Positions 6,105 through 56,873 of a stretch of 64,000 nucleotides of DNA are shown piece by piece. Origin of the DNA: Escherichia phage HK3. The DNA is taken from sequence record PP526765; one strand, 5' to 3'. Under the pieces are notes generated by a model, which was not told the DNA's origin, searched no databases, and was given only the letters and a program-made list of their open reading frames with translations. Position 1 is the stretch's first letter; every line of letters starts with the position of its first letter. The translations under genes were made by a program, and so were the position numbers.

Positions 6105-8471
6105 ATGCGCATGGTAAACGACCACGCAGAAGTGATTAAGAGTTCAACTTCTTTAGAGACATCTCAAGCACAGATTACAATGACACCTGAAATGTTCAGC
6201 CTTCTGAGTTCTGGTGTATATACCTTTAAAGAGCGAGCAGTAATTCGTGAACTGTCATGTAACGCAGTAGATGCTCAGAAAGAAGCTGGAAAAGAGAACA
6301 TCCCGTTCCATGTGCATTTACCGACTCGTTTTGAGCCTTACTTTGAAGTTCGTGATTTTGGAACTGGATTGACTCATGATAAAGTTATGAGTTTGTATCT
6401 AAACTACGGGGCTTCTACAAAGAATGACTCTAATGACTACATTGGTGCAATGGGTATCGGCTCAAAATCCCCATTTGCAATTGCTCAGTCATTCACAGTG
6501 TCCAGTTATGTTGATGGTGTTGTTAATAAGTATTCTGTTTATCTTGAGAATGGTATTCCTCAAGTAACTAAGCTGACCACCAACCCAACAAAAGAGCCAA
6601 ATGGTTTAGCTGTACGTGTAGCAGTTGCTGACCATCGTATCTCAAAGTTCTTTGAAGAGGCTGGTCACGTATACTCATACTTTGCTGTAAAACCGGAAAG
6701 TAACATTGAGTATGACGATGTATTAGCAGATATGAATGTCATTGCCCGTGAAGAAGGTGTTTATGATGCCATGATTCATAAGCAAAGCTGGCGTTCTAGT
6801 GGTAACAGGACAGAGTTTAATGTAGTGATGGGTAACATTGCCTACCCTGTTAACATGGAAGCACTACTTGGTGATGATTTCTTTAAAGTCTTGCCAGAGT
6901 TTTTCCGTAGGAGCGTAGACCTTGTAAACATCTATATGCCTATTGGTTCAGTTGCTATTGCAGCTTCTCGTGAAGCATTGCAGATGAATGATACAACAAA
7001 AAATGTTATCATTGAGGCTACTAAAAAGATAACTGAAGCAATTACAAAGGATGTTATCAAGAAAGTTAACAGTCAACCCACACTCATGGATGCTGCACAG
7101 GCTTATGCTGAGTTACGTTTGAACTCACGAGAGATGTTTAATGCTGTGTGTCCAAAGCTAGAGTGGGGAGGTGTTAAGCTTGATTCTCTGGAAGAAGAAT
7201 TACTAAATATTCGTCGTGGAATTATCTATGCAGAAGACGGCTCAGTTATCTATGAACGTGATGGTAAAGGTAATATTAAGGTTGACAGGAACGGAAACAA
7301 CATCCCTAAAGTAGATTATCTTTATGACCCAGTTGCTTATGTCAAGTTCAACTCTTTAGAAAGTAAGATTCGTGCAACAGCACTTTCCTACACTCAAGAG
7401 GCAAGTATGTTCAATATCTTTGGCGCAATGCGTAAAAGCCAAATTGAACAGTTCTTGTTTGTTATCAATGACCGTCGCAATAAAAACGGTACTGAGAAGA
7501 CTGTAGGACGCAATCAAATCTTGCGTGGCGCATGTCGAGACTATGCCAGTGAGTCAAGTCTGTTTCACAGATACAATGGTATCGTCTTTGTATTCTCGAC
7601 TGAAAAAGAGTTAGACGACCTAATCAATCTGCACAAACTTGATAAAAGCTTGTTAAAGATTGTGAAGATGTCTGATAAGGAACATCATTATCAGCGTAAA
7701 GAAGCTGTAAGAGGTGTTGTAAAACTCTGGAAAGCTGTTCCAGCAGAAGGTGTAGCTTCCTATAAAGAGGTGTCAGAAGACTTAGACACAATTGAAGAGC
7801 CTCAACTTTATATCAAGGCGGTAGGTGATACTGTTGATGGTGAATGTTTTTGCTCGTCTCCAGAAGATGTAGCTAAGTCAGTTGCCAATGTCATTGAAAA
7901 GACAGTCTATGTTTTCCGAAAAGCAAATTGGAAAAAGATACCAGAAGACTGGATTGAAGTAGATGAGAAGCTCTTGAACGACAGCTTAACTGATGTTCAC
8001 TGGATTAATCATAACAGGTATATGACACGTATCTATATGAATGGTGTCCTAGACCTTACAAGCAGTTGGATTATTGCCAGAAACTTTACGTTCAATAACA
8101 GGAAGATTTCTCGTGGTTATTGTTATTCACGAGACACAAACAAAACTATCTTCTTAGAAGGTAATGAAGATGCTGTTGAGGCAATGTTTGGTAAAATCCA
8201 ATACGTTGCTGCACCGTTTGCATACACTTACACTATTAGTCGTTTGCAAACTTTGAAAGAGTGCCTTGACAATGATACAAAGCTGTACAAGAAAATTAAG
8301 AAAGCTGGTGACCGTATGGTCATTAAGGTGACAAACTATCTTTCAAAAAGAAAACAAGAAAACTTCTTGCTTTCTCATTTAGATTGGAATAAAGTGTCAC
8401 CCATCGAAGTGAGTAAGTTCTTAGGCTTTGATGTGAAGTGTGTTCCAGAAGGGACTACAATTTACGATTAA
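6105..8471 (+). CDS. rIIA: rIIA-like protein (GHKL-type ATPase fold)
   Basis: N-terminal region reads like T4 rIIA (..RAVIRELSCNAVDA.., RDFGTGL.., GIGSKSPF); 788 aa; AAGAGGAAAG Shine-Dalgarno. Confidence 0.75.
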   Translation: MRMVNDHAEVIKSSTSLETSQAQITMTPEMFSLLSSGVYTFKERAVIRELSCNAVDAQKEAGKENIPFHVHLPTRFEPYFEVRDFGTGLTHDKVMSLYLNYGASTKNDSNDYIGAMGIGSKSPFAIAQSFTVSSYVDGVVNKYSVYLENGIPQVTKLTTNPTKEPNGLAVRVAVADHRISKFFEEAGHVYSYFAVKPESNIEYDDVLADMNVIAREEGVYDAMIHKQSWRSSGNRTEFNVVMGNIAYPVNMEALLGDDFFKVLPEFFRRSVDLVNIYMPIGSVAIAASREALQMNDTTKNVIIEATKKITEAITKDVIKKVNSQPTLMDAAQAYAELRLNSREMFNAVCPKLEWGGVKLDSLEEELLNIRRGIIYAEDGSVIYERDGKGNIKVDRNGNNIPKVDYLYDPVAYVKFNSLESKIRATALSYTQEASMFNIFGAMRKSQIEQFLFVINDRRNKNGTEKTVGRNQILRGACRDYASESSLFHRYNGIVFVFSTEKELDDLINLHKLDKSLLKIVKMSDKEHHYQRKEAVRGVVKLWKAVPAEGVASYKEVSEDLDTIEEPQLYIKAVGDTVDGECFCSSPEDVAKSVANVIEKTVYVFRKANWKKIPEDWIEVDEKLLNDSLTDVHWINHNRYMTRIYMNGVLDLTSSWIIARNFTFNNRKISRGYCYSRDTNKTIFLEGNEDAVEAMFGKIQYVAAPFAYTYTISRLQTLKECLDNDTKLYKKIKKAGDRMVIKVTNYLSKRKQENFLLSHLDWNKVSPIEVSKFLGFDVKCVPEGTTIYD

Positions 8472-8475
8472 AGTG

Positions 8476-8509
8476 TTTGACAAGGGGCTTCAAAGCCCCT
8501 TAGAATAGC
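8476..8509 (+). promoter_or_regulatory. TTGACA -35 box with hairpin AGGGGCTTCAAAGCCCCT in the spacer and TAGAAT -10 (promoter-hairpin cassette)
   Basis: same hairpin motif recurs in the small-ORF array cassettes. Confidence 0.45.
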
Positions 8510-13300: not shown

Positions 13301-14086
13301 ATGGGTATTGTAAAAATCATCAATGGGGATATCTTCTCCGCATTTGATAAAGGTAAGTTTGATATCATTGGTCACGGTTGTAACTGTATGAACTTAATGG
13401 GTGCGGGTATCGCTGACAAGATTTCTAAACTTTACCCAAAAGCATATGAGACCGATACAGAAGTTTATCTGTATGCAGGCGGTATAGGCCACAAACCCTG
13501 TGAAAATTTACTAGGCAACTTCTCTGTAGCACGTTTAGAACAAGGCCGTATAGCTAACCTTTACACTCAGCTTAAGACTGGTAAAGATGCCCGATACAGT
13601 GCTTTAGAGTCATCTTTGAAACAACTTAACAGATACTGTGAAGTTAATCAGTTGAAGAAAGTTGGTTTACCTATGATTAGTGCAGGTATCGGTGGACTTG
13701 ACCCTCAAGCCGTCACCGTTATCATTAATCAGGTGATGAAGAGTGTAGATGTCTATCTATATGTCTACGAAGGAGAGATGTACCACAAGTTACGCTCAGG
13801 TTGGAAGAACTACTGTGAACCAGAATACTTTGCAGGTGTAGTAGTGTTCACTGACGATGCAGTTACCCTCTTCAGACGAAGAAAAGGTAAGGTACATCAA
13901 AGTAACCCTCCGGTTGAAAAGATGTCTCTAAGTAACGCTCTAGTTACCCACCTGTCGAAGAGCAATCACAGAATTGCAGTAACATTTGGCAGTGATGCAG
14001 ATACATATATCTATGCAAGAACTGATGAGGATGTTGAGGGAATTTTCTCTTCACCGGAAGTTACCTTCTTAGACGCAAAGAACTAA
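13301..14086 (+). CDS. macro-domain protein, TARG1/OARD1-like ADP-ribose hydrolase fold, with C-terminal extension
   Basis: GDIF...DIIGHGCNCMNLMGAGIA and LPMISAGIGGLD match the TARG1-type macro motifs (GDLF...HCISEDCRMGAGIA...MPRIGCGLD) as recalled. Confidence 0.55.
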   Translation: MGIVKIINGDIFSAFDKGKFDIIGHGCNCMNLMGAGIADKISKLYPKAYETDTEVYLYAGGIGHKPCENLLGNFSVARLEQGRIANLYTQLKTGKDARYSALESSLKQLNRYCEVNQLKKVGLPMISAGIGGLDPQAVTVIINQVMKSVDVYLYVYEGEMYHKLRSGWKNYCEPEYFAGVVVFTDDAVTLFRRRKGKVHQSNPPVEKMSLSNALVTHLSKSNHRIAVTFGSDADTYIYARTDEDVEGIFSSPEVTFLDAKN

Positions 14087-14161
14087 GAAACTCTGTAGAA
14101 TATTCACAATAGACTAAGCCTTTCTTATCTGGTAAATTTTCAGGTAAGGAGGGCTTTTTCA

Positions 14162-14352
14162 TTTTAGAATTGTGCAGGTAGAGTTCTGGACAGAAATCTG
14201 TAGAGAGAATTTTGAACTCCAAAGAGAAAATTCATTTTCAAACTGTGCAGGTAATCTCCAAAGAGCTTTTTCATTTTCAAAATGTGCAGAGAAAAATCAG
14301 GTCGGGCAAGAAAAATCATTTTCGAATTGTGCAGGTAGGTGGGTGCAGGTGG
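14162..14352. repeat. four direct repeats, consensus TTTTCATTTTCRAAWTGTGCAGGTA (iteron-like)
   Basis: copies near 14162, 14236, 14272, 14318; no credible coding capacity. Confidence 0.7.
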
Positions 14353-14513
14353 GGATGTCGCCATTTCTCACAAGGCTACCACATCCGAAAAGAAAAGTCA
14401 ACAGAAAAATTTGTAGCGGATTGAAAAATAATTCTTGATTTGTGTTCTGTTTTGTGGTATTCGCGCGCACCCGTTTCATTACATTTTTGCCAAAAATATT
14501 TTTAAAATTTTTA

Positions 14514-14542
14514 TTGACTCATCGAACGGGTTTTTATAGTAT
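14514..14542 (+). promoter_or_regulatory. strong sigma70-like promoter TTGACT-N17-TAGTAT with A/T-rich UP-like tract
   Basis: read directly; flanked by inverted 7-mers ACCCGTT (14470) and AACGGGT (14525); heads the small-ORF array. Confidence 0.6.
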
Positions 14543-14595
14543 CTGCATCAGACGGGGCGACAAGCCCGATAGCCTTAAACTAGGAGATTCAAAAA

Positions 14596-14802
14596 ATGAT
14601 TTACAGCCGTGAATTGATGGTCACAACTAACGTTAACACAAAGGTAAAACGTTTTTATATGCAAGTATGCGGCGCATGGCGTAGAATATCAGAATCTGAC
14701 TATTGCAACTATGTAGAAACGGCTATTAATTCTAATTGCTATCTTACAAAGAATACAAAGCGACATATAAAACAGACAGCGGTTTACTATTACGATATAT
14801 AA
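14596..14802 (+). CDS. array small ORF 1 (68 aa)
   Basis: ATG 8 nt after TAGGAGA in conserved cassette. Confidence 0.5.
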   Translation: MIYSRELMVTTNVNTKVKRFYMQVCGAWRRISESDYCNYVETAINSNCYLTKNTKRHIKQTAVYYYDI

Positions 14803-14892
14803 AAAGTACTTTACAGGGGGCTTAAAAGCTGATATCTTAAGCCCCAGATAAAGAACTTTACCACATTAACCTTAAACTAGGAGATTCAAAAA

Positions 14893-15273
14893 ATGGCATA
14901 TCGTGCACCTAAATTCATCAATAAAGACAACTTCCGCAACGCACTGGAAAAATCACTTGATGAGAATTTTACAGGTCAGATTATTGTTGTTCACGCATTC
15001 AATTTTAAGTATGATATTAACGGGAACAGAATCAACCATTACACGGCAACCATGTTAGATGGTACACTATCAAGTGAAAAAGCTGTACTGAATGCACTTG
15101 CAGGACGTGGCAAAAACCTGATAAAATGCAATAAGAGACGTTATCAGGGCGGCGCATATGGTTATGATGACGCTGTTTACCATCTTGAAAATATGGGCTA
15201 TCAGGTGGAAAAAGCTGGGGTCTCTCAAATAATCGGCAGTGACGGCTATGTGACAATTTTCAAAATTAACTAA
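14893..15273 (+). CDS. array small ORF 2 (126 aa)
   Basis: conserved cassette upstream. Confidence 0.55.
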   Translation: MAYRAPKFINKDNFRNALEKSLDENFTGQIIVVHAFNFKYDINGNRINHYTATMLDGTLSSEKAVLNALAGRGKNLIKCNKRRYQGGAYGYDDAVYHLENMGYQVEKAGVSQIIGSDGYVTIFKIN

Positions 15274-15363
15274 TAAAGTACTTTACAAGGGGCTTATAGT
15301 TCGATAAAGTAAGCCCCAGATAAAGAACTTTACCACATTAACCTTAAACTAGGAGATTCAAAA

Positions 15364-15621
15364 ATGGCTATTATCAAAAACGTTACAATCCCTGCAAAAA
15401 CTCGTGATGACGCTCGCGTTATGGCTAAAAAGTTATGCGGAAAAGTGGTTGACAACGGAAAAAAATCTGCTGTAAGATGGGGTGTAAAGGTTGATAAATG
15501 TTTAACCTTAAAACGTAATTCAAACAACCTTTTTAAAGGTGTAAAATCACTCGGTAAAGTGAACGTTTTTACCAAAAAAGGCTATAAAATGCACTTATCA
15601 TTAACTTGCAATTTAATCTGA
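15364..15621 (+). CDS. array small ORF 3 (85 aa, basic)
   Basis: conserved cassette upstream. Confidence 0.5.
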   Translation: MAIIKNVTIPAKTRDDARVMAKKLCGKVVDNGKKSAVRWGVKVDKCLTLKRNSNNLFKGVKSLGKVNVFTKKGYKMHLSLTCNLI

Positions 15622-15711
15622 TAAAGTACTTTACATGGGGCTTAAAAGCTGATATCTTAAGCCCCAGATAAAGAACTTTACCACTAAATCCTTAAACTAG
15701 GAGATTCTAAA

Positions 15712-16008
15712 ATGAAATTATCGAATAACGTTCGTGAAAATCTAAGCAAATTACTCAATAAAATCGATTTTATTGAGACCTCAAGAAATACTCATGCGGT
15801 TATGGAATGGATACACGGCAAAATAAAAGGCCGTCGTGTGGTGATTTGCTTATGGAATAGTTGCAGGGAGTATAAAAAACCTGTATTACAAATTAATGTT
15901 TATGATAATACTTTTAAAAGCCCTGTAAAGTCTAAAAGTGACTTATTAGAATCTTATGAGATAACTTTAAATGGTAAGGTATCACGTAAAGAGGAAACAC
16001 CATGTTAA
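15712..16008 (+). CDS. array small ORF 4 (98 aa)
   Basis: conserved cassette upstream. Confidence 0.5.
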   Translation: MKLSNNVRENLSKLLNKIDFIETSRNTHAVMEWIHGKIKGRRVVICLWNSCREYKKPVLQINVYDNTFKSPVKSKSDLLESYEITLNGKVSRKEETPC

Positions 16009-16334
16009 TGATGGGGACAACTGCAATCATCGCCATTATAGCCCTTTATAAGGCTTACAGCGCCTACAATCTGGCAAGTAAGGCAATCACGCAGCAGGTT
16101 AATAATAACCTTGTAGAAAGCTTTCTAGGGCGTTTAAGCGATGAGCAAATAAAGCGGCTAGAAATGAGTTTCAGATTTCAATCAAAAACTTATCAAATCA
16201 GCGACATTTTCAAAGAGGATTTTCAGCTTGTCGATGATTATAACGCACTGATAAATGCTTTAAATATCAGTGACTTAAAAGATTATTACGCTGTAATTGT
16301 CCAAGAATTGAACAAACGAAAAAATTCCTCTTGA
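16002..16334 (+). CDS. array small ORF 5 (110 aa, N-terminal TM helix), coupled to ORF 4
   Basis: ATG overlaps previous stop; hydrophobic N-terminus. Confidence 0.5.
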   Translation: MLMMGTTAIIAIIALYKAYSAYNLASKAITQQVNNNLVESFLGRLSDEQIKRLEMSFRFQSKTYQISDIFKEDFQLVDDYNALINALNISDLKDYYAVIVQELNKRKNSS

Positions 16335-16423
16335 TTTTGGTTTTAAAAGCAAGTAAATTACTAATCAACGGGGAGGGAATGACCTTCCCCACTAAGTAAA
16401 ACCCTTAAACTAGGAGATTCAAA

Positions 16424-16696
16424 ATGTATACTACTAACAACGGTCGAACCTTAAACGTAACACTGCGCCACTATGTAAACGGTGTAATGCACTTCGAAGA
16501 TTTACAAGCTGAACAACATATTTTGGATTGGCAACTTGCAGGATTCCAAAAAACTGCTACCGGATACGGGAAAAAGATTCCAACTAGTTGGAAAGTATAC
16601 TACGAAGGCCGTTTGCGCAGAATTTATCAGGATGTTTACAGCAATAGCGCAAAAAGTTACATCATGGTAAAAGGTAAAAAATTACACTTAGTGTAA
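16424..16696 (+). CDS. array small ORF 6 (90 aa)
   Basis: type B cassette upstream. Confidence 0.5.
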   Translation: MYTTNNGRTLNVTLRHYVNGVMHFEDLQAEQHILDWQLAGFQKTATGYGKKIPTSWKVYYEGRLRRIYQDVYSNSAKSYIMVKGKKLHLV

Positions 16697-16783
16697 AGTA
16701 CTTTACAAGGGGCTTATAGTTCGATAAAGTAAGCCCCAGATAAAGGGCTTTACCGCATTAACCTTAAACTAGGAGATTCAAAA

Positions 16784-17188
16784 ATGGCTATCAATAAACG
16801 CGAATTATCAATTTTAAAAGCACGTTTGACCGTCAACCGGATTAATGTTATCACGTCATCAGCGCCAGACGAAACACTGCAAAACATTATCGGGAAGATT
16901 CAAAGTGTTATCTTAGACGTTGAAAGCGTAAAAAACTCACTGATTGACGTTGCAGCGGGTATCACGCTAGACGGCGCACAATATGAAATGGCTGACATGT
17001 TAGGCAAATCTAAGGTAATGAATAGAGAGCTGGATTTGAAAATGTTTCGTTTTGCTGTTAAAGTATGGCTAGCCATCGAATATGGCGCGAATTTTGCAAT
17101 CGCTGACTTTTTCGCCACCTGGTTACAACGTAATTTAACAAATCACGATTTTCGTGATATCTGCGACGTAATTTACGCAGAACTTTGA
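16784..17188 (+). CDS. array small ORF 7 (134 aa)
   Basis: type A cassette upstream. Confidence 0.55.
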   Translation: MAINKRELSILKARLTVNRINVITSSAPDETLQNIIGKIQSVILDVESVKNSLIDVAAGITLDGAQYEMADMLGKSKVMNRELDLKMFRFAVKVWLAIEYGANFAIADFFATWLQRNLTNHDFRDICDVIYAEL

Positions 17189-17292
17189 AAAATTTCTCTT
17201 GATTTTGGTTTTAAAAGCAAGTAAATTACTAATCAACGGGGAGGGAATGACCTTCCCCACTAAGTAAAACCCTTAAACTAGGAGATTCTAAA

Positions 17293-17496
17293 ATGGCTAC
17301 TATCAACGGTTTAAACATTGAAACTACTCACATCAAAGATATTAAAGTCGGTGATACAGTCCTTTTTCACGGCGTAGAAAAAACCGTTACGGCGAAAGAC
17401 ATCAAAGAGGATTCTTTCATGGGTCGGTCTCTCTTCGGTGATTCGTATTGCTTAGGTTACCGTGCAGTTTTAAAAGTTGTAAAAAATAATAAATAA
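17293..17496 (+). CDS. array small ORF 8 (67 aa)
   Basis: type B cassette upstream. Confidence 0.5.
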   Translation: MATINGLNIETTHIKDIKVGDTVLFHGVEKTVTAKDIKEDSFMGRSLFGDSYCLGYRAVLKVVKNNK

Positions 17497-17583
17497 AGTA
17501 CTTTACAAGGGGCTTATAGTTCGATAAAGTAAGCCCCAGATAAAGAGCTTTACCACTAAATCCTTAAACTAGGAGATTCAAAA

Positions 17584-18126
17584 ATGAAATGCTTTCACGG
17601 TACTACTCAAGAAAATTTTGTCAACCTGATTAATAACGGTGATAAGCCATCAGGCGCATGGAATTGTTCGGATATGGATGGGAATTTTTACGTTTATCCA
17701 GAAAATAAAATCTATGGTGACGATGAGGAAGAAATAGTCTCTGAAGGTATCCAGCAAGCTCTGGGCAATGCCGCTATCACCGCAGCTTTCCAGATGAAAA
17801 CTCAAAACATTGTTATCTTGGAACTTGATATTCCAGAAGATGAGTTAAATGATGATTATTCTTGCGATAATATGTCTGGCGTGGCAAGTTTTACAGAATA
17901 TTTCGATTTAAACTGGATTAAAAAGGTTTACACCACTGAATTCAATGCCATGTTTTCGCCATTTTGTCTTCCTTCACTGGATAACCCGAATTTAAACTAT
18001 ATTGATGAGTCTCTGGAACTTCTCGCTAAAAGTGTTCAGCAATCAGACAGTATTCAGGTTTTTTGTGACATCATGGACACACTGACGGGAAACATCGCAG
18101 AAAGAGATTTAAAGGGCTTTTTCTAA
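17584..18126 (+). CDS. array small ORF 9 (180 aa, acidic)
   Basis: type A cassette upstream. Confidence 0.55.
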   Translation: MKCFHGTTQENFVNLINNGDKPSGAWNCSDMDGNFYVYPENKIYGDDEEEIVSEGIQQALGNAAITAAFQMKTQNIVILELDIPEDELNDDYSCDNMSGVASFTEYFDLNWIKKVYTTEFNAMFSPFCLPSLDNPNLNYIDESLELLAKSVQQSDSIQVFCDIMDTLTGNIAERDLKGFF

Positions 18127-18192
18127 TAACCTATACAATCACCTTATAAACACTGATTAGCCCCTTCTAGGGGCTTTTAGGAGGCTTAAATC

Positions 18193-18426
18193 ATGCTTAC
18201 AACCGTTTACCTCATCCTTTCCATTTGTAACGGTCATTCATGCGATTTTAAAGGGCTTGAAGAATTTACAGGGAGTAAAGAAAATGCTATTCAGGTTTGC
18301 CAGATAGCAAGACAAGACTACCCCACCAGTGATGATATACAATGCTATTTTAAGACAGAAGACAGCGACGGCGTTTATTTTGACAGCGTTGATGGTCAAT
18401 ATGAAATTATCATAGAAAAAGACTAG
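18193..18426 (+). CDS. array small ORF 10 (77 aa)
   Basis: preceded by hairpin AGCCCCTTCTAGGGGCT and AGGAGG Shine-Dalgarno. Confidence 0.5.
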   Translation: MLTTVYLILSICNGHSCDFKGLEEFTGSKENAIQVCQIARQDYPTSDDIQCYFKTEDSDGVYFDSVDGQYEIIIEKD

Positions 18427-18516
18427 ACAAGCCTGATAGAAATCTGTAAATTGTCAATCAACGGGAGGTAATGACCTCCCAACGAAGTAAAACCCTTAAA
18501 CTAGGAGATTCAAAAA

Positions 18517-18858
18517 ATGGCTTATGTAACTGTAATTACCAATAAACCGGATTCATCTTGGTCAACTCAAGTAAGTGATAAGATGACACCTATGCAGTGC
18601 CTAAAATACTTTGAGCAATGGAATAAAGGCGAGGATATCAGCCCCTTTCAAGTGATGCAGATTATCCATACAGACAACGAAGGGATTAAAACGGTTTTAA
18701 ATAGTGAGTACTATGTAACCAGATTTGAAACGAGATGTAAAACGATGAAACTATTACGCGAATCCGGTTATCCTCATATTGCCGCGCTAATCTGGGATGA
18801 TTTGCTAAAAAATCAGCGTATCAGCTACGTAAAACCTGAAAAAATATTCATCAGTTAA
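18517..18858 (+). CDS. array small ORF 11 (113 aa)
   Basis: type B cassette upstream. Confidence 0.55.
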   Translation: MAYVTVITNKPDSSWSTQVSDKMTPMQCLKYFEQWNKGEDISPFQVMQIIHTDNEGIKTVLNSEYYVTRFETRCKTMKLLRESGYPHIAALIWDDLLKNQRISYVKPEKIFIS

Positions 18859-19080
18859 TCAATAACTTACAAAAAACTTTCAAAAAAGTATTGACAACAC
18901 CCCTTGACATTGGTAACTTTGTTCGAGGGGGTTTATCTTAAAGGGATTCACTTAAAAGATTTCTTTAAAGATAAGCTTAAAAAATTGCTTGCAATCAGAT
19001 ATCAAAACAAGTAAATTACTAATCAACGGGAGGGATAACCCCCCCCACTAAGTAAAACCCTTAAACTAGGAGATTCTAAA

Positions 19081-19611
19081 ATGAACAAATTTCAAGCTAT
19101 CAACTATATTCGTTCCGTCAATGTCATGTCAAAACCTGTAAAAGATACGTATGAATTTCGTTGCAATGGTGTGCATTTTGCGACCATCACCAAATCAGAA
19201 AACGGGGCTTATTACGTTCATCGCCGTAATGTTGCAACCGTTGTAGTCTCTCATTTTATGCAAGCTGTCGCGGAACTTCTCCCGATGTTTTTGGGTCTTT
19301 ACTTGGATGAGTGTAAGCACATTCACAATCACGTTAAAAACCTTTTAAACAGTTATAAAATGGCTTACGAGCGTTCAATCAAGTACTTAAACAAGTTTTA
19401 CAACGCACCTGAAAATACTGTATCAATGGCCTATGCTGAAAATGGTGAGTTAGTGAGTCTCTTCGAAGTGGAAGAAATCAAGCTGTACGATTTACTCCCT
19501 AGCGGTTACACTAAGACACTGGGAGAAGGTTTGTCTTTCAATATCAAGAATTTAGAAAAAACTTTAAAAGATATTGAAAAAGATATTGACGAGACAATCA
19601 AAAATCTGTAA
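19081..19611 (+). CDS. array small ORF 12 (176 aa)
   Basis: type B cassette plus extra TTGACA promoters at 18890-18920. Confidence 0.55.
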   Translation: MNKFQAINYIRSVNVMSKPVKDTYEFRCNGVHFATITKSENGAYYVHRRNVATVVVSHFMQAVAELLPMFLGLYLDECKHIHNHVKNLLNSYKMAYERSIKYLNKFYNAPENTVSMAYAENGELVSLFEVEEIKLYDLLPSGYTKTLGEGLSFNIKNLEKTLKDIEKDIDETIKNL

Positions 19612-19679
19612 ATTGTCAATCAACGGGGAGGGAATGACCTTCCCCACTAAGTAAAATCCTTAAACTAGGAGTTATCAAG

Positions 19680-19943
19680 ATGGAAAACGTAGAATTAACC
19701 ACACTTTTACAAATCGCAACCGACAAAGAAAACGTAGCATTATTACACCGCATTGAAAGCGATTTGTTCAATGGTGAAATCATCAAAGAGTCTTACGAAG
19801 TTGTCGGATTCAAAGATGGTAAAACATTTGGATTCTTTGACCTCGACAAATGCAACGCTGTTACAAATTACGATGTTTTATCTTGTGAGATTCTTACAAA
19901 ATACAACGAAAAAAGGCTTGCAACATACGCCAACATGCAGTAA
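19680..19943 (+). CDS. array small ORF 13 (87 aa)
   Basis: type B cassette upstream. Confidence 0.5.
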   Translation: MENVELTTLLQIATDKENVALLHRIESDLFNGEIIKESYEVVGFKDGKTFGFFDLDKCNAVTNYDVLSCEILTKYNEKRLATYANMQ

Positions 19944-20008
19944 ATTACTAATCAACGGGAGGGATGACCTCCCTACTAAATAAAGTCCTTAAACTAGGAG
20001 ACTCTAAA

Positions 20009-20257
20009 ATGGCAACTATCCGCGCAACTGTTAACGAATTTGGCTTCTACTCTCTGGATGTTAAATTCGACCTTGTGGGTACTGATAACGCCTTTGAAAT
20101 GGTGAAAGTTCTTATCAGTCAGACCATCAAAGACTATAATCCTTCAGATGAGTTCTGGAAAGAAACAAAACAGGAAGTTCTCAAAGAGGGCTATTCATAT
20201 CACCATTGGGGTGAAAAAATCGTCTCCCTGTACTACGACAAAGAAGGCACTAACTAA
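20009..20257 (+). CDS. array small ORF 14 (about 82 aa)
   Basis: type B cassette; ATG at 20009 (track ORF 19964 starts inside the cassette). Confidence 0.5.
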   Translation: MATIRATVNEFGFYSLDVKFDLVGTDNAFEMVKVLISQTIKDYNPSDEFWKETKQEVLKEGYSYHHWGEKIVSLYYDKEGTN

Positions 20258-20296
20258 TCGACGCAGCGGGGCTAAAATAGCCCCAGATACCTTTAC

Positions 20297-20323
20297 AGCC
20301 CCTTTCCAATAGGGGCTTTTTTA
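20297..20323 (+). terminator. rho-independent terminator closing the array
   Basis: AGCCCCT-TTCCAAT-AGGGGCT hairpin plus TTTTTT; a second GGGGCT...AGCCCC hairpin just upstream. Confidence 0.65.
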
Positions 20324-20329
20324 CGTCTC

Positions 20330-21890
20330 ATCAAATCCCTTTCCTTTCCCTTTCCAGAATCTATCTCATACCTTAAAAAGCAATAACTCTATAGCTTACT
20401 CTATAGCCTTTTATTAAATCAACTTAAATATAAGCCCATAACCCGAAAGGGAAGGGCAACCGTTTAAACGCTCTATAAAGCCCTATAACGGCCTTATTAA
20501 CATAACTTAAGGGATTGCATTACCTAACCCTTAAAAGCCCTTTATAAAGCTTTCTAGGGGCTTAAAAGAGCCTTAAAAGAATCTTATAAGGGTGTAAGCT
20601 TTATCATCTCGTTAGTTATCTTGTGAACTACTAAAAAGGGCTTGTCAGTGTCTTAAAAGTATGTTATAGGGGCTATAAAGTTGCTTAAAAGTTGCTTAAA
20701 AGTTACGTAAATGCTAGCCCCCTTAACATTTTCTTAACAATTTCTTAACAAACCCTACATAGTTATGCTTTCAAGACACTTGTTAGTAACTTGTTAGCCC
20801 CTTGTTAAATCTCTGTTAAGACCACGTAAAAGCTTTGTAAGAGCCTTTGACATAGCCTTTAAAGCTCCTGTAAAGCCCTATAAAGAGCTTTCTACATAGT
20901 TGGGGTGGAATTACTAGAAAGAGACTAAAAAGAGCTTATAAGGAGCTATAGAGAGCTTTTAAAAGGGCTGTTTAAAAGGTCACTAAGAAAGGAAAGGGAA
21001 CGATAAGACCAGAGATAGTGACCATGTTAATAGATTGTTAAAAAGGTTAAACACTTGTTAGGAACTTGTTAATTATCTTAACAAAATAACTCTTTAAAAT
21101 TAACTATTTAGCCCTTGTTAGTCATCTGTTAATCCTCTGTAAAGACTATGTATCAACTGTTAAGAAACTGTTACCCTCTTGTTAAAACTGTTAAGAATCT
21201 GTTAAGTCCTCTGAAGAGATGTTAAAAGGTTGTAGCAACTGTTAAGAGATTGTTAATGATATTTTAAAATTTTGCAAAGGGGGTGTTAAGGAGCTGTTAA
21301 GGGCTACCAAGCAGATATACATCCTAGACAGATATTTTTGAGTTCCTTCAAAGACCCTAAAAAATGACTTGATAGTCCTATTTTATAAAAATTTTAAAAT
21401 TCTGAATAATTACCTAGACAGTCTTTTAAAAATACAGGCATAAACAGGCTTATAAGATACCTTGTTAATACCGTGTTAGACCTTGTGAGATAAGGTCTGT
21501 AAAGATATTCCTGTTAAGTTTGTTAAAACAGCCTATATAGAGGCTTAGTAATACCTAGTGAACACCTATAGAGGGTAACATAGTTGACCTAATGGGTTAC
21601 TGTTAAGTAACACAGGTAACCTAGAGATTAAGAGGTGTATAGGGGCTTCTAAGAGGGTGTAGAGGTATGGTTAAGGTGATTGTATAGGTTGTTAAGAAGG
21701 CTTGTTAGAGGGCTGTTTAGAAGGGCTATACAGATGGCTATTAAGACCACTAGATAGATACTAAGATACTATATAGTACTATATAACTATATAGAGAGTA
21801 AGCTTAAGAAGGTTGTTAAGAAGGGTAGATATTTTATTCACATATGCTGGTGACCCAGAGGTTGGGACAACCGATGAAATTTTATAAAAA
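20330..21890. repeat. 1.6 kb ORF-free field dense in degenerate 8-mers (CTGTTAAG, CTTGTTAR, CTTAAAAG, CTATAAAG) with AT-rich palindromes
   Basis: no ORF of 60 aa or more on either strand; CTGTTAAG-type units recur about every 11 bp in 21150-21270; ACTATATAGTACTATATA palindromes at 21760-21800. Confidence 0.75.
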
Positions 21891-21892
21891 TT

Positions 21893-21925
21893 AAAAAGCC
21901 CCCAATTAAGGAGGCTCTTAAGATA
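21893..21925 (-). terminator. terminator for the minus-strand block
   Basis: minus-strand reading gives AGCCTCC...GGGGGCT hairpin followed by a T-run. Confidence 0.45.
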
Positions 21926-56826: not shown

Positions 56827-56873
56827 AATTCTTTACAGGGGGCTGTATAGCCCTCTTTCTAGAGGACAAAATA

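Follow-up and report, generated by a model that had tools for sequence, protein, structure and literature searches.

The array of small genes between two intrinsic terminators in a Felix O1-type phage is best read as an accessory string of plug-in expression slots, in which repeated intergenic cassettes act as both regulatory and recombination units, an interpretation to which we give a probability of about 0.7. The DNA analysed, hereafter the window, is a 64-kb stretch from a Felixounavirus, a Felix O1-type (Ounavirinae) myovirus. Comparison was made over a set of 16 phages from three genera, which yields 80 cassette copies of type A and 90 of type B; the layout of the window recurs in an Erwinia phage belonging to a fourth genus.

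Genes and cassettes of the array

The array comprises 14 ORFs of 67–180 amino acids, all on the + strand, and is bordered by canonical terminators homologous to those of Felix O1 (t13 on the left; Table 1). The last gene before the left terminator is a macro-domain/phosphatase gene (13301-14086). The 14 ORFs fall into 14 different PHROGs and all-against-all BLASTP returned no pair with E below 0.6, bearing out a preliminary description in which they were called unrelated to each other. Its count of about 12 cassettes of two types also held: there are five of type A, six of type B and one B-like first promoter (P1), and no further cassettes were found elsewhere in the window. The claim that each ORF has its own cassette stands for 12 of the 14, the exceptions being g5 and g10. 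The first belongs to a two-gene module with g4, which it overlaps (ATGTTAATGA) with no cassette between. The second forms a module with g9 (17584-18426) that is present as a pair in 15/16 phages and absent as a pair from Felix O1; the g9–g10 spacer holds a terminator-like hairpin followed by TTTT (~18158-18180), with the g10 Shine–Dalgarno (SD) sequence after the hairpin.

The suggestion that such arrays house host-takeover and anti-defence genes finds some support in one ORF of the 14, g9, which has an ADP-ribosyltransferase fold. For g12, relatives carry the precomputed Pfam family PF26821, shown as Phage_T4_Y16F; fold comparison gave no informative match.

Table 1. Borders, cassettes and genes of the array (phage counts refer to the 16-phage set; the type B -10 hexamer is TAAATT throughout)
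Feature	Position	Strand	Description
Left border terminator	14116-14156	+	closes upstream operon; 17-bp stem, then T-run
P1, first cassette, B-like	14480-14598	+	A/T-rich tract; TTGACT 14514, 17-nt spacer, TAGTAT to 14542; small hairpin ~14553-14568; leader 14573-14595, then g1 ATG
g1	14596-14802	+	68 aa; phrog_5293; 10/16 phages
Type A, g1>g2	14803-14895	+	-35 TTTACA 14810; -10 TATCTT to 14838; leader 14870; extended hairpin 14803-14859, MFE -23.1 kcal/mol, z -4.3
g2	14893-15273	+	126 aa; 12/16 phages
Type A, g2>g3	15274-15366	+	TTTACA 15282; TAAAGT 15310; leader 15342
g3	15364-15621	+	85 aa; basic; 13/16 phages
Type A, g3>g4	15622-15714	+	TTTACA 15630; TATCTT 15658; leader 15690; MFE -29.1 kcal/mol, z -6.0
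g4	15712-16008	+	98 aa; 16/16 phages; module g4/g5, 15712-16334
g5	16002-16334	+	110 aa; 16/16 phages
Type B, g5>g6	16320-16426	+	-35 TTGATT 16331-16336, overlaps g5 stop TGA; -10 16354-16359; hairpin 16370-16390; leader 16403
g6	16424-16696	+	90 aa; 16/16 phages
Type A, g6>g7	16697-16786	+	TTTACA 16702; TAAAGT 16730; leader 16762
g7	16784-17188	+	134 aa; 16/16 phages
Type B, g7>g8	17188-17295	+	-35 17199-17204; -10 17222-17227; hairpin 17238-17258; leader 17271
g8	17293-17496	+	67 aa; variable slot
Type A, g8>g9	17497-17586	+	TTTACA 17502; TAAAGT 17530; leader 17562
g9	17584-18126	+	180 aa
g10	18193-18426	+	77 aa; acidic; own SD
Type B, g10>g11	18424-18519	+	-35 TAGACA 18424-18429, contains g10 stop; -10 18447-18452; hairpin 18463-18480; leader 18494
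g11	18517-18858	+	113 aa; 16/16 phages
Type B, g11>g12	18989-19083	+	preceded by conserved extra 130 nt (18859-18988); -35 TTGCAA 18989-18994; -10 19012-19017; hairpin ~19028-19047; leader 19059
g12	19081-19611	+	176 aa; 16/16 phages
Type B, g12>g13	19586-19682	+	-35 TTGACG 19586-19591, within g12; -10 19609-19614, contains g12 stop; hairpin 19625-19645; leader 19658
g13	19680-19943	+	87 aa; 9/16 phages
Type B, g13>g14	19918-20011	+	-35 TTGCAA 19918-19923, within g13; -10 19941-19946, contains g13 stop; hairpin 19957-19973; leader 19987
g14	20009-20257	+	82 aa; 16/16 phages
Right border terminator	20297-20317	+	intrinsic; homologous to Felix O1 t23

Promoters, hairpins and leader

As had been proposed, every cassette combines a G+C-rich hairpin with sigma70-like -35 and -10 hexamers, which are 17 nt apart. 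The five type A copies (starts 14785, 15257, 15605, 16677 and 17477) are ~110 nt long and 78–91% identical pairwise. Their predicted promoter, TTTACA-17-TAnnnT, is kept across the 16 phages: TTTACA is invariant in 50 distinct copies, and in the variable loop only the T, A and final T of the -10 hexamer, exactly 17 nt downstream, show complete or at least 90% conservation. This promoter is enclosed by a 57-nt imperfect palindrome with an interrupted stem of ~18–19 bp (5+5+8–9 bp, 3x3 internal loop; MFE -23 to -29 kcal/mol, z -3.6 to -6), which places the -10 hexamer in the loop. The stem is paired in 98.2% of 889 cells, with compensatory changes in three pairs; one-sided changes give G·U, so that pairing works on the + strand only. 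On the reading preferred here the hairpins work as + strand single-strand structures, most likely RNA. Single-stranded DNA accepts G·T wobble too, so strand-specific pairing is no proof of an RNA role, and some of the covariation could be imitated by a palindromic operator.

The predicted type B promoter, TTGnnn-17-TAAATT, is likewise kept across the 16 phages, with T.G at the -35 position and the 17-nt spacer in 87 of 90 copies, and its -35 hexamer occurs in six different contexts, including the interior of the g12 and g13 ORFs. Downstream of it lies a hairpin that folds in all 90 copies (mean MFE -13.6 kcal/mol against -4.4 in shuffles) despite ~40 sequence variants. The transcript predicted for a type B promoter carries the hairpin ~2–4 nt from its 5′ end, where the hairpin would probably protect that RNA from 5′-end-dependent decay, in the manner of the ompA-type 5′-terminal stem-loops that stabilise mRNAs in Escherichia coli. 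The type A hairpin, because it encloses the promoter, exists only in transcripts that read through from upstream, in which it would probably stabilise the 3′ end or be a site of processing, with RNase III-like geometry, rather than act as a terminator. RNase III processing hairpins lie between the early genes of phage T7, and the interrupted ~19-bp type A stem has the same location between cistrons. In sequence the array hairpins are unrelated to either precedent, and no Rfam family reached threshold in a search with them.

It is unlikely that each hairpin is instead an efficient terminator, making every gene monocistronic with its own promoter in the manner of the true PeSL-type (promoter-early stem-loop) units of RB49/phi1. 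PeSL stem-loops are often GGGG...CCCC and terminate effectively in reporter assays (PMC2839356), the array stems have the same GGGG...CCCC form, and the GenBank record of ASO1A labels type B hairpins as WebGeSTer 'terminators'. However, a U-tract follows neither hairpin, and a terminator scan gave hits flanking the array and within g12, none in any cassette. Moreover, an efficient terminator at the type B position, 3′ of its own promoter, would silence the gene served; the type A loop holds the -10 hexamer; and the stem-loop of a PeSL sits upstream of its promoter (PMC4122927).

The near-identical leader said to end the cassettes was confirmed: CCTTAAACTAGGAG, with at most one mismatch, has 12 copies in the window where shuffles predict 0.05. 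All are on the + strand, from 14573 to 20000, and each lies 7–9 nt ahead of an ATG. The full CCTTAAACTAGGAGATTCWAAA(A)(A)ATG is matched by 10 of the 12, the leaders of g13 and g14 diverging after GGAG. Each slot would close with one translation-initiation leader, CCUUAAACUAGGAGAUUCWAAAAUG, its GGAG 7–9 nt from the AUG, so that any inserted ORF would be transcribed and translated alike.

Transcription by host sigma70 RNA polymerase would start at P1 and at the 11 internal cassette promoters. Their predicted hexamers have only 8–10 of 12 matches to consensus, and a simple promoter scan of the array region is modestly enriched (32 sites against 20.8 ± 4.5 in shuffles). The array had been described as early. 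By RT-PCR in Felix O1, ORF16, 20, 21 and 22, several of them orthologues of array genes, do peak at 5 min, but the maximum for ORF17, 19 and 23 comes at 25 min (PMC3185647), which makes part of the array middle rather than early; in the literature library searched, no Felixounavirus transcriptome paper was found. Expression of the array probably falls in the early to middle part of infection.

Cassette-bounded variation among relatives

The relatives do not share one gene content, as a locus without modular exchange would lead one to expect, and where they differ, cassettes bound the change. Gene shuffling, as it had been anticipated, is seen mainly as presence/absence and same-slot replacement, not as reordering: gene order is nearly invariant over the 16 phages. 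Every four-gamete combination of the modules g1, g2, g3, x20 and g13 is represented in this set. Almost all junctions retain an intact cassette. Of 221 junctions, 170 consist of one A or B cassette, 85–108 nt long; the others are the overlap of g4 with g5, the spacer between g9 and g10, P1 and a small number of scars. In relatives without g1, P1 directly precedes g2 or x22, a gene found in two different slots; x34, x23 and x35 are insertions with leaders at their flanks; g3 is in exact tandem duplicate in Michonne; and g8 is exchanged for the unrelated x24 in SUSP2 and Michonne, while ASO1A has both.

The junctions point to recombination within the cassettes. In five phages that lack g13 the junction has a g12-type left part and a g14-type right part, whereas Felix O1, also without g13, has a g13>g14-type body instead; the two kinds imply that crossovers took place at two or more points within the cassette. 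Crossovers map within the hairpin and leader, spread over the cassette rather than at one fixed point. By its sequence, the g7>g8 cassette arose by ectopic copying: it is a 98% copy of 16320-16424, including ~14 nt from the coding end of g5, and is shared by UAB_Phi87, whereas 12 of an initial set of 13 Felixounavirus comparators have a different, TTGACA cassette in this slot. Two leader alleles have a patchy distribution across the same set of genes, giving a mosaic matrix (allele 1 in 12/12 leaders of the window, 0/12 in SUSP2 and 0/13 in Michonne), a third allele has nine copies in Pistou, and Kolesnikvirus, Mooglevirus and Suspvirus each have homogenised, lineage-specific leaders.

These comparisons show the cassettes, as direct repeats of 25–110 nt, to be substrates for homologous recombination. 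The module is an ORF with the cassette body downstream of it, crossovers falling in the shared hairpin and leader; the outcomes are deletion, duplication, insertion or same-slot replacement of single-gene modules, ectopic cassette copying and leader conversion. The core modules g4–g7, g11, g12 and g14 never vary despite their flanking repeats, and together with the nearly invariant order this indicates that selection, not repeat-driven recombination alone, shapes the pattern. Random breakage, too, would favour the survival of cassette-bounded indels, because they leave neighbouring genes intact. Selection probably maintains the regulatory role, with plasticity as a consequence.

One could go further and regard the cassettes as purely regulatory and kept by selection, with gene content changing through illegitimate recombination and horizontal exchange in which they have no causal part. 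Collinear order and unvarying core modules are what this account would lead one to expect, and identical function alone could constrain the leader. We nevertheless judge it improbable, as it leaves unexplained the patchy, interchangeable leader alleles, the cassette copied with 14 nt of another gene, the chimeric junctions with parental left and right parts, and the homogenised leaders of the three lineages.

Less probable still is that palindromes and leader are recognition sites of a dedicated phage factor, be it a repressor switching off the entire array, a RegB/RegA-like post-transcriptional regulator with the GGAG leader as its target, or a site-specific recombinase with integron-like attC logic. 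Every SD in the array is GGAG, the target of T4 RegB; the 25-nt leader is conserved far past SD needs; and the type A palindrome moves with its upstream ORF, as attC would. Arbiol et al. voiced the same idea for PeSL stems (PMC2839356). Against it, no array ORF matches a DNA-binding, RNA-binding or recombinase family and no candidate factor was found, crossovers are not confined to one site, and three leader alleles work in different lineages.

Relation to known systems

Plug-in slots bounded by repeats recall the PeSLs of T4-like phages, in which a terminator stem-loop lies upstream of a promoter (PMC4122927) that reads TTTACW...TAYWAT in the T4/PST version (Arbiol et al. 2010, PMC2839356; Comeau et al. 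2014, PMC4122927). The likeness drawn in the preliminary description survives in logic, namely cassette-bounded gain, loss and swap, but not in anatomy. Both systems repeat an intergenic unit of sigma70-like promoter (17-nt spacer), GGGG...CCCC stem-loop, SD and start codon among clustered small unrelated ORFs, with unit-bounded indels and replacements and chimeric units at junctions. The array phages, however, are Ounavirinae, not T4-like; their hairpins enclose (type A) or follow (type B) the promoter without a U-tract; two distinct cassette bodies share one leader; the body moves with the upstream gene, the promoter lying partly inside that gene's ORF; and all copies sit in one 6-kb terminator-bounded block instead of several hyperplastic regions.

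Part of this is already known. Whichard et al. (2010, PMC3185647) reported in Felix O1 a 57-bp direct repeat, CTTTACATGGGGCTTAAAAGTCTGTAAAGTAAGCCCCAGATAAAGAGCTTTACCACT, between genes 15/16 and 19/20, and a 39-bp direct repeat, TTGACACTGGTTTTTAGATAGATTAAATTACACATCAAC, between genes 18/19 and 20/21. These are the same elements as the array cassettes, the former being type A and the latter the type B promoter. There they were merely listed, without interpretation or any link to hairpins, leader or gene-content variation; other promoters were proposed, and secondary promoters and temporal control were called unknown (PMC3185647).

Integrons offer a second likeness: small unrelated ORFs in one orientation, each followed by a ~57-nt imperfect palindrome that moves with it and pairs strand-specifically, as attC does. 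In the array, however, no integrase was found, the ORFs have predicted promoters of their own, crossovers are spread over the repeat and the phage is lytic. The host-takeover module of Bacillus phage SPO1, whose small early genes come with numerous strong sigmaA promoters and equally with strong ribosome-binding sites, is similarly a one-strand cluster in which nearly each gene has a host-type promoter and a strong SD; phage and genes are unrelated, and repeated hairpin cassettes and cassette-bounded exchange do not figure in its description. Cassette-bounded plasticity, known from T4-type phages, is found here in another subfamily with a different build.

Repeated putative expression cassettes between two terminators

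The array comprises 14 ORFs of 67–180 amino acids (g1 to g14), all on the + strand and flanked by canonical hairpin and T-run terminators (see table). The 64-kb window contains 12 copies of the 14-nt leader CCTTAAACTAGGAG, where 0.05 would be expected; every copy lies on the + strand within the array block and ends 7–9 nt 5′ of an ATG, and the Shine–Dalgarno (SD) motif GGAG stands 7–9 nt ahead of the ATG in 12 of 12 cassettes. These leaders, together with two cassette families termed types A and B, confirm the repeated promoter, hairpin and SD units that the preliminary description had placed among 14 small ORFs. Its further claim that each ORF is preceded by a cassette holds for 12 of the 14 and fails for g5, which overlaps g4, and for g10, which is separated from g9 by a small hairpin and carries an SD of its own. 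The B-like first promoter cassette, P1, was initially read as TTGACT-N17-TATAGT; this was dropped because the true spacing is 15 nt, TAGTAT being the 17-nt partner and conserved in relatives. No cassette was found elsewhere in the window. Two partial type A starts, both isolated and on the + strand, may mark promoter/hairpin combinations of type A style elsewhere in the genome.

Positions of array features and neighbouring elements in the window
Feature	Position	Form or copies	Location or remark
Partial type A start	8476-8491	TTTGACAAGGGGCTTC	outside array
Upstream terminator	14116-14156	hairpin + T-run	5′ flank
~30-nt repeat	14150-14416	4-5 copies, 37-82 nt apart	between upstream terminator and P1
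Array	14440-20330	14 ORFs	
P1, B-like	14514-14542	TTGACT-17-TAGTAT	precedes g1; A/T-rich tract upstream
Type A cassettes		5 copies, ~110 nt, 78-91% identical	upstream of g2, g3, g4, g7, g9
Type B cassettes		6 copies	upstream of g6, g8, g11, g12, g13, g14
g4-g5 pair	15712-16334	cassette-free	
g5>g6 cassette	16320-16424		
g7>g8 cassette	17188-17292		
g9-g10 pair	17584-18426	cassette-free	
Extra 130 nt	18859-18988	TTGACA-17-TAACTT; CCCC...GGGGG hairpin	g11>g12 spacer
g12	19081-19611		
Downstream terminator	20297-20317	hairpin + T-run	3′ flank
ORF-free 1.6 kb	20330-21900		directly 3′ of array
Partial type A start	56831-56846	CTTTACAGGGGGCTGT	outside array

We compared 80 type A and 90 type B copies from 16 phages: the window, 13 further Felixounavirus genomes, the Suspvirus SUSP2 and the Mooglevirus Michonne, with UAB_Phi87 and Erwinia phage Pistou as later additions to the comparison. 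Type A copies comprise 50 distinct sequences in a nearly gap-free alignment with the sigma70-like pattern TTTACA-17-TAnnnT. The −35 TTTACA is invariant, and in the −10, exactly 17 nt on, the T, A and last T are invariant or at least 90% conserved (forms seen include TATCTT, TAAAGT, TAGTAT and TAAGAT); the rest of the loop varies freely. This promoter is enclosed, from the −35 to past the −10, by an interrupted 18-bp hairpin (5 + 5 + 8) with minimum free energies (MFE) of −23 to −29 kcal/mol in the window (z −3.6 to −6). Pairing holds in 98.2% of 889 cells, with compensatory changes at three pairs; the one-sided changes are G·U, so the pairing is kept only on the + strand, as RNA or single-stranded DNA. 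Type B carries TAAATT as its −10 in 75 of 90 copies and a T.G-type −35 exactly 17 nt upstream in 87 of 90 (TTGnnn-17-TAAATT; mostly TTGCAA, TTGACA, TTGACG, TTGATT or TAGACA). That −35 is kept across six unrelated contexts: in some it lies within an ORF (g12, g13), in others it overlaps a stop codon (g5, g10). The type B hairpin, 6–9 bp and G/C-rich, begins ~10 nt past the −10 and folds in 90 of 90 copies, across ~40 sequence variants (mean MFE −13.6 versus −4.4 ± 2.4 kcal/mol in shuffles). At the level of sequence, conserved hexamers, spacing and hairpins thus bear out the description of both types as a sigma70-like promoter beside a GC hairpin. Rfam 15 returned only sub-threshold microRNA-hairpin noise on the cassettes (at most 27 bits versus gathering scores of 47–74 bits).

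Cassette-bounded gene exchange among relatives

The array region matches 253 phage records, nearly all Felixounavirus (best REP5/6/7, 90% identity), and its counterpart in Felix O1 is ORF15–23, flanked by terminators t13 and t23. The 16 phages share a collinear gene order, and their gene content is mosaic: g1 is present in 10, g2 in 12, g3 in 13 and g13 in 9 of the 16, and x20, a 170-aa ORF of relatives (named x plus a number), occurs in 8 and is absent from the window. The pairs g1/g13, g1/x20, x20/g13 and g2/x20 each appear in all four presence/absence combinations, so the modules assort independently. g8 and the unrelated x24 are alternatives for one slot, and both occur in ASO1A; seven ORFs (x23, x34, x35, x55, x57, x62 and x63) are confined to one phage. 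x22 precedes g1 in ASO1A and SapYZU01, but its Michonne counterpart (40% identity, E 8e-12) stands in the g10–g11 interval; Michonne also has g3 as an exact tandem duplicate. An apparent family of g6 and g8 was rejected as an artefact of ORF calls running through type B cassettes; BLASTP finds no similarity between the two. The cassette-free pairs are always co-inherited: g4 and g5 are found in all 16 phages, g9 and g10 together in 15, both missing in Felix O1. Modular exchange, as proposed beforehand, therefore stands: rather than one content and order common to all relatives, the 16 phages show differences bounded by cassettes.

Exactly one cassette of 85–108 nt is kept at nearly every junction. 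The cassette body tracks the upstream gene (behind x20 there is always an A variant specific to it, and −10 hexamers contain the stop codons of g12 and g13); the leader tracks neither flanking gene. In five phages the g13-less junction is chimeric, joining a g12-side left part (TAAATTGTCAATCAAC) to a g14-side right part. At this junction Felix O1 carries a body of g13>g14 type instead, which implies at least two crossover positions, both within the cassette. x34, x23 and x35 are insertions with leaders on their flanks, and tootiki, dune and SapYZU01 have a composite scar leader in common. Upstream of g14 in SapYZU01, tootiki and dune (L010/L011/L012), a truncated leader of the first allele precedes one of the second (CCCTTAATCAACTTCCTAAACTGGAG); in Michonne (L015, ~7350-7520), a leader and ATG are fused straight to a new type A cassette (GAATCTAAAATGCTTTACATGGGG) beside the g3 duplication. 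Both structures are recombination scars.

The leader exists as two alleles, CCTTAAACTAGGAG (first) and CCTAAAYTGGAG (second). The outgroups have only the second (SUSP2, 12 of 12; Michonne, 13 of 13), each other Felixounavirus (n = 13) has 3–8 copies of the first in a pattern that varies gene by gene, and among the genomes compared only the window has the first at all 12 sites. Whole cassettes also move. The cassette at g7>g8 (the junction between g7 and g8) is a 98% copy of that at g5>g6, down to ~14 nt that code for the end of g5, and is a case of ectopic slot-to-slot copying. The slot holds a different cassette in 12 of the first 13 Felixounavirus comparators. That the copy is specific to the window was ruled out by a database search, which shows it in UAB_Phi87 and some others; it is therefore an older ectopic copy.

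Besides Felixounavirus, the cassette system is present in Suspvirus, Mooglevirus and Kolesnikvirus. The Kolesnikvirus Pistou has the same layout, a g9 homologue of 35% identity, type A-like units with the stem GGTGTTTA...TAAGCACC, and a third leader allele, AACCCTTAnAAAGGAATCAA, in nine copies. A shared layout with its own leader allele indicates that the system is as old as the subfamily and that leaders were homogenised within lineages. IMG/VR contigs that bear the type A core are all 54–94 kb long, the size range of Felix-type genomes. Collectively, these comparisons demonstrate repeats, promoter-like hexamers with their spacing, strand-specific hairpins, cassette-bounded exchange, and conversion of leaders and cassettes.

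Promoters, hairpins and the PeSL comparison

In the promoter-early stem-loop cassettes (PeSLs) of T4-like phages, the stem-loop lies just upstream of the promoter and acts as a terminator or attenuator of upstream transcription (PMC4122927; PMC2839356). Applied to the array, this model would make the cassette hairpins terminators, which is unlikely because neither is followed by a U-tract or T-run (ACCACATTAACC follows type A and ACTAAGTAAAAC type B) and because the type B hairpin would end its own transcript. An intrinsic-terminator scan matched only at 14116, 20297/20300 and 19281, and at no position within a cassette.

We instead propose that host sigma70 polymerase would initiate at P1 and at every cassette. 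Type B transcripts would start 2–4 nt 5′ of the hairpin. E. coli has 5′ stem-loop stabilisers of mRNA, and by analogy the type B hairpin would shield its transcript from 5′-end-dependent decay. Type A transcripts would begin within the 3′ arm, so that the complete hairpin would exist only in read-through RNA, where it could stabilise 3′ ends or serve as a site for RNase III-type processing. Through the shared leader, any inserted ORF would acquire an identical region for starting translation. For Felix O1, temporal control and secondary promoters were stated to be unknown; in RT-PCR, the peak came at 5 min for ORF16, 20, 21 and 22, and at 25 min for ORF17, 19 and 23 (PMC3185647). The method is crude, and its timing is compatible with early to middle expression of the array. 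Our literature search found no Felixounavirus transcriptome study. Placement of the array at a physical genome end, as first-injected DNA, finds no support: the record of UAB_Phi87, whose ends were mapped experimentally (PMC4837284), puts it at ~16–22 kb of 87.6 kb.

It is a long shot that leader and hairpins are recognition elements of a dedicated Ounavirinae-wide system. A leader-binding or leader-cutting shut-off factor would switch the whole array off together, in the manner of T4 RegB or RegA; a hairpin-targeting factor that picks up and swaps gene modules would give a strictly lytic phage a cassette platform akin to an integron. Integron arrays have an adjacent tyrosine-recombinase integrase and one recombination point in attC. 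Among the array ORFs, 14 in all, no match to any recombinase family was found; crossover points here are spread along the cassette.

With PeSLs the array has in common a sigma70-like −35/−10 in an intergenic unit (here by sequence), an SD and start codon that close the unit on its 3′ side, clustering among small variable ORFs of unknown function, unit-bounded indels and replacements between relatives, and regulatory cassettes that double as recombination linkers. Neighbouring PeSL units recombine to yield mini-circles and have promoter and terminator activity in reporter assays (PMC2839356). The array differs in hairpin position (type A spans the promoter, type B lies downstream, no T-run behind either) and in host phage, a Felixounavirus rather than a T4-like myovirus. 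Its own traits are a leader common to two cassette bodies, promoters that lie in part within the ORF before them, confinement to one array with a terminator at either end, and concerted evolution of the leader alleles. The PeSL likeness drawn earlier accordingly survives for cassettes as recombination linkers, and not for the position and role of the stem-loop or the phage group.

Array genes, flanking elements and significance

Each of the 14 array proteins belongs to a PHROG of its own, in every case one of unknown function, and no two of them are similar, in agreement with their earlier description as mutually unrelated; Pfam and NCBIfam scans of the 14 ORFs gave nothing above cut-off. g9 probably corresponds to Bas63 gp107, called Tpt1-like in the PhageMaP preprint, and no validated counter-defence or trigger gene of that preprint on Bas63 could be placed in the array. 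g9 is a candidate ADP-ribosyltransferase (ART)-fold protein, a fold marked by a beta-sandwich with an NAD-binding motif. Past a conserved hairpin 3′ of g9, with compensatory changes in relatives, lies g10, whose small and acidic product (pI 4.1) may partner g9 or inhibit it. For the gene that immediately precedes the array, records of relatives give macro-domain protein or phosphatase as the annotation. g12, a core array gene, had no match in our local Pfam copy; its database relatives carry a precomputed PF26821 ('Phage_T4_Y16F') assignment, which seems to place it in one family with an uncharacterised T4 ORF. No informative fold match came from its confident AF2 model (pLDDT 91.8; a beta-sheet domain and a long helical hairpin). 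A putative role of such arrays in holding takeover or counter-defence genes is plausible.

Non-coding elements adjoin the array. The ~30-nt repeat ahead of P1 (...TTTTTCATTTTCRAAnTGTGCAG...) recurs at the same place in the distant Pistou (L060 2046-2196; 4 copies, 37–39 nt apart) and is probably a functional non-coding element, for example regulator binding sites. In every Felixounavirus genome compared, the g11>g12 spacer measures 222 nt; its promoter-like and hairpin-bearing extra 130 nt, where Michonne has the 46-aa ORF x63 and ASO1A annotates a promoter and 'terminator', may represent a micro-ORF, a small RNA or the remains of a slot. The ORF-free 1.6 kb between convergent transcription units is 88–94% conserved across the genus and dense in short repeats (CTTGTTA, CTGTTAAG, CTTAAAAG, TTCTTAACA) that run in either orientation, frequently at 11-nt spacing. 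The GC skew switches sign at about 22 kb. This iteron-like pattern may mark a replication origin or packaging region.

Whichard et al. reported 57-bp and 39-bp direct repeats in Felix O1 and left them uninterpreted (PMC3185647). The 57-bp repeat (genes 15/16 and 19/20) is type A and the 39-bp repeat (18/19 and 20/21) the type B promoter, and in the GenBank records of ASO1A and AYO145A, single type B promoters and 'terminators' are annotated on the basis of pattern searches. We found no paper that treats the units as a system or ties PeSLs to Felix O1-type phages; the repeats themselves have been known since 2010.

Felix O1-type phages are widely used in Salmonella and E. coli typing, biocontrol and therapy, and about two-thirds of the genes of a relative, Bas63, are dispensable in the laboratory (PMC11482910). 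For engineering, the cassettes offer ready-made insertion sites and expression signals, with instability predicted between 98%-identical repeats. The slot genes, including the candidate ART-fold protein near a macro-domain gene, are candidates for host-takeover and counter-defence screens. The 6-kb block amounts to standard expression slots whose shared ends let single genes drop in and out, and this organisation accounts for much of the gene-content mosaic between isolates otherwise ~90% identical. It carries the PeSL concept, in which regulatory cassettes act as recombination linkers, past T4-like phages in a different layout, which suggests that the same strategy has been used convergently or anciently.
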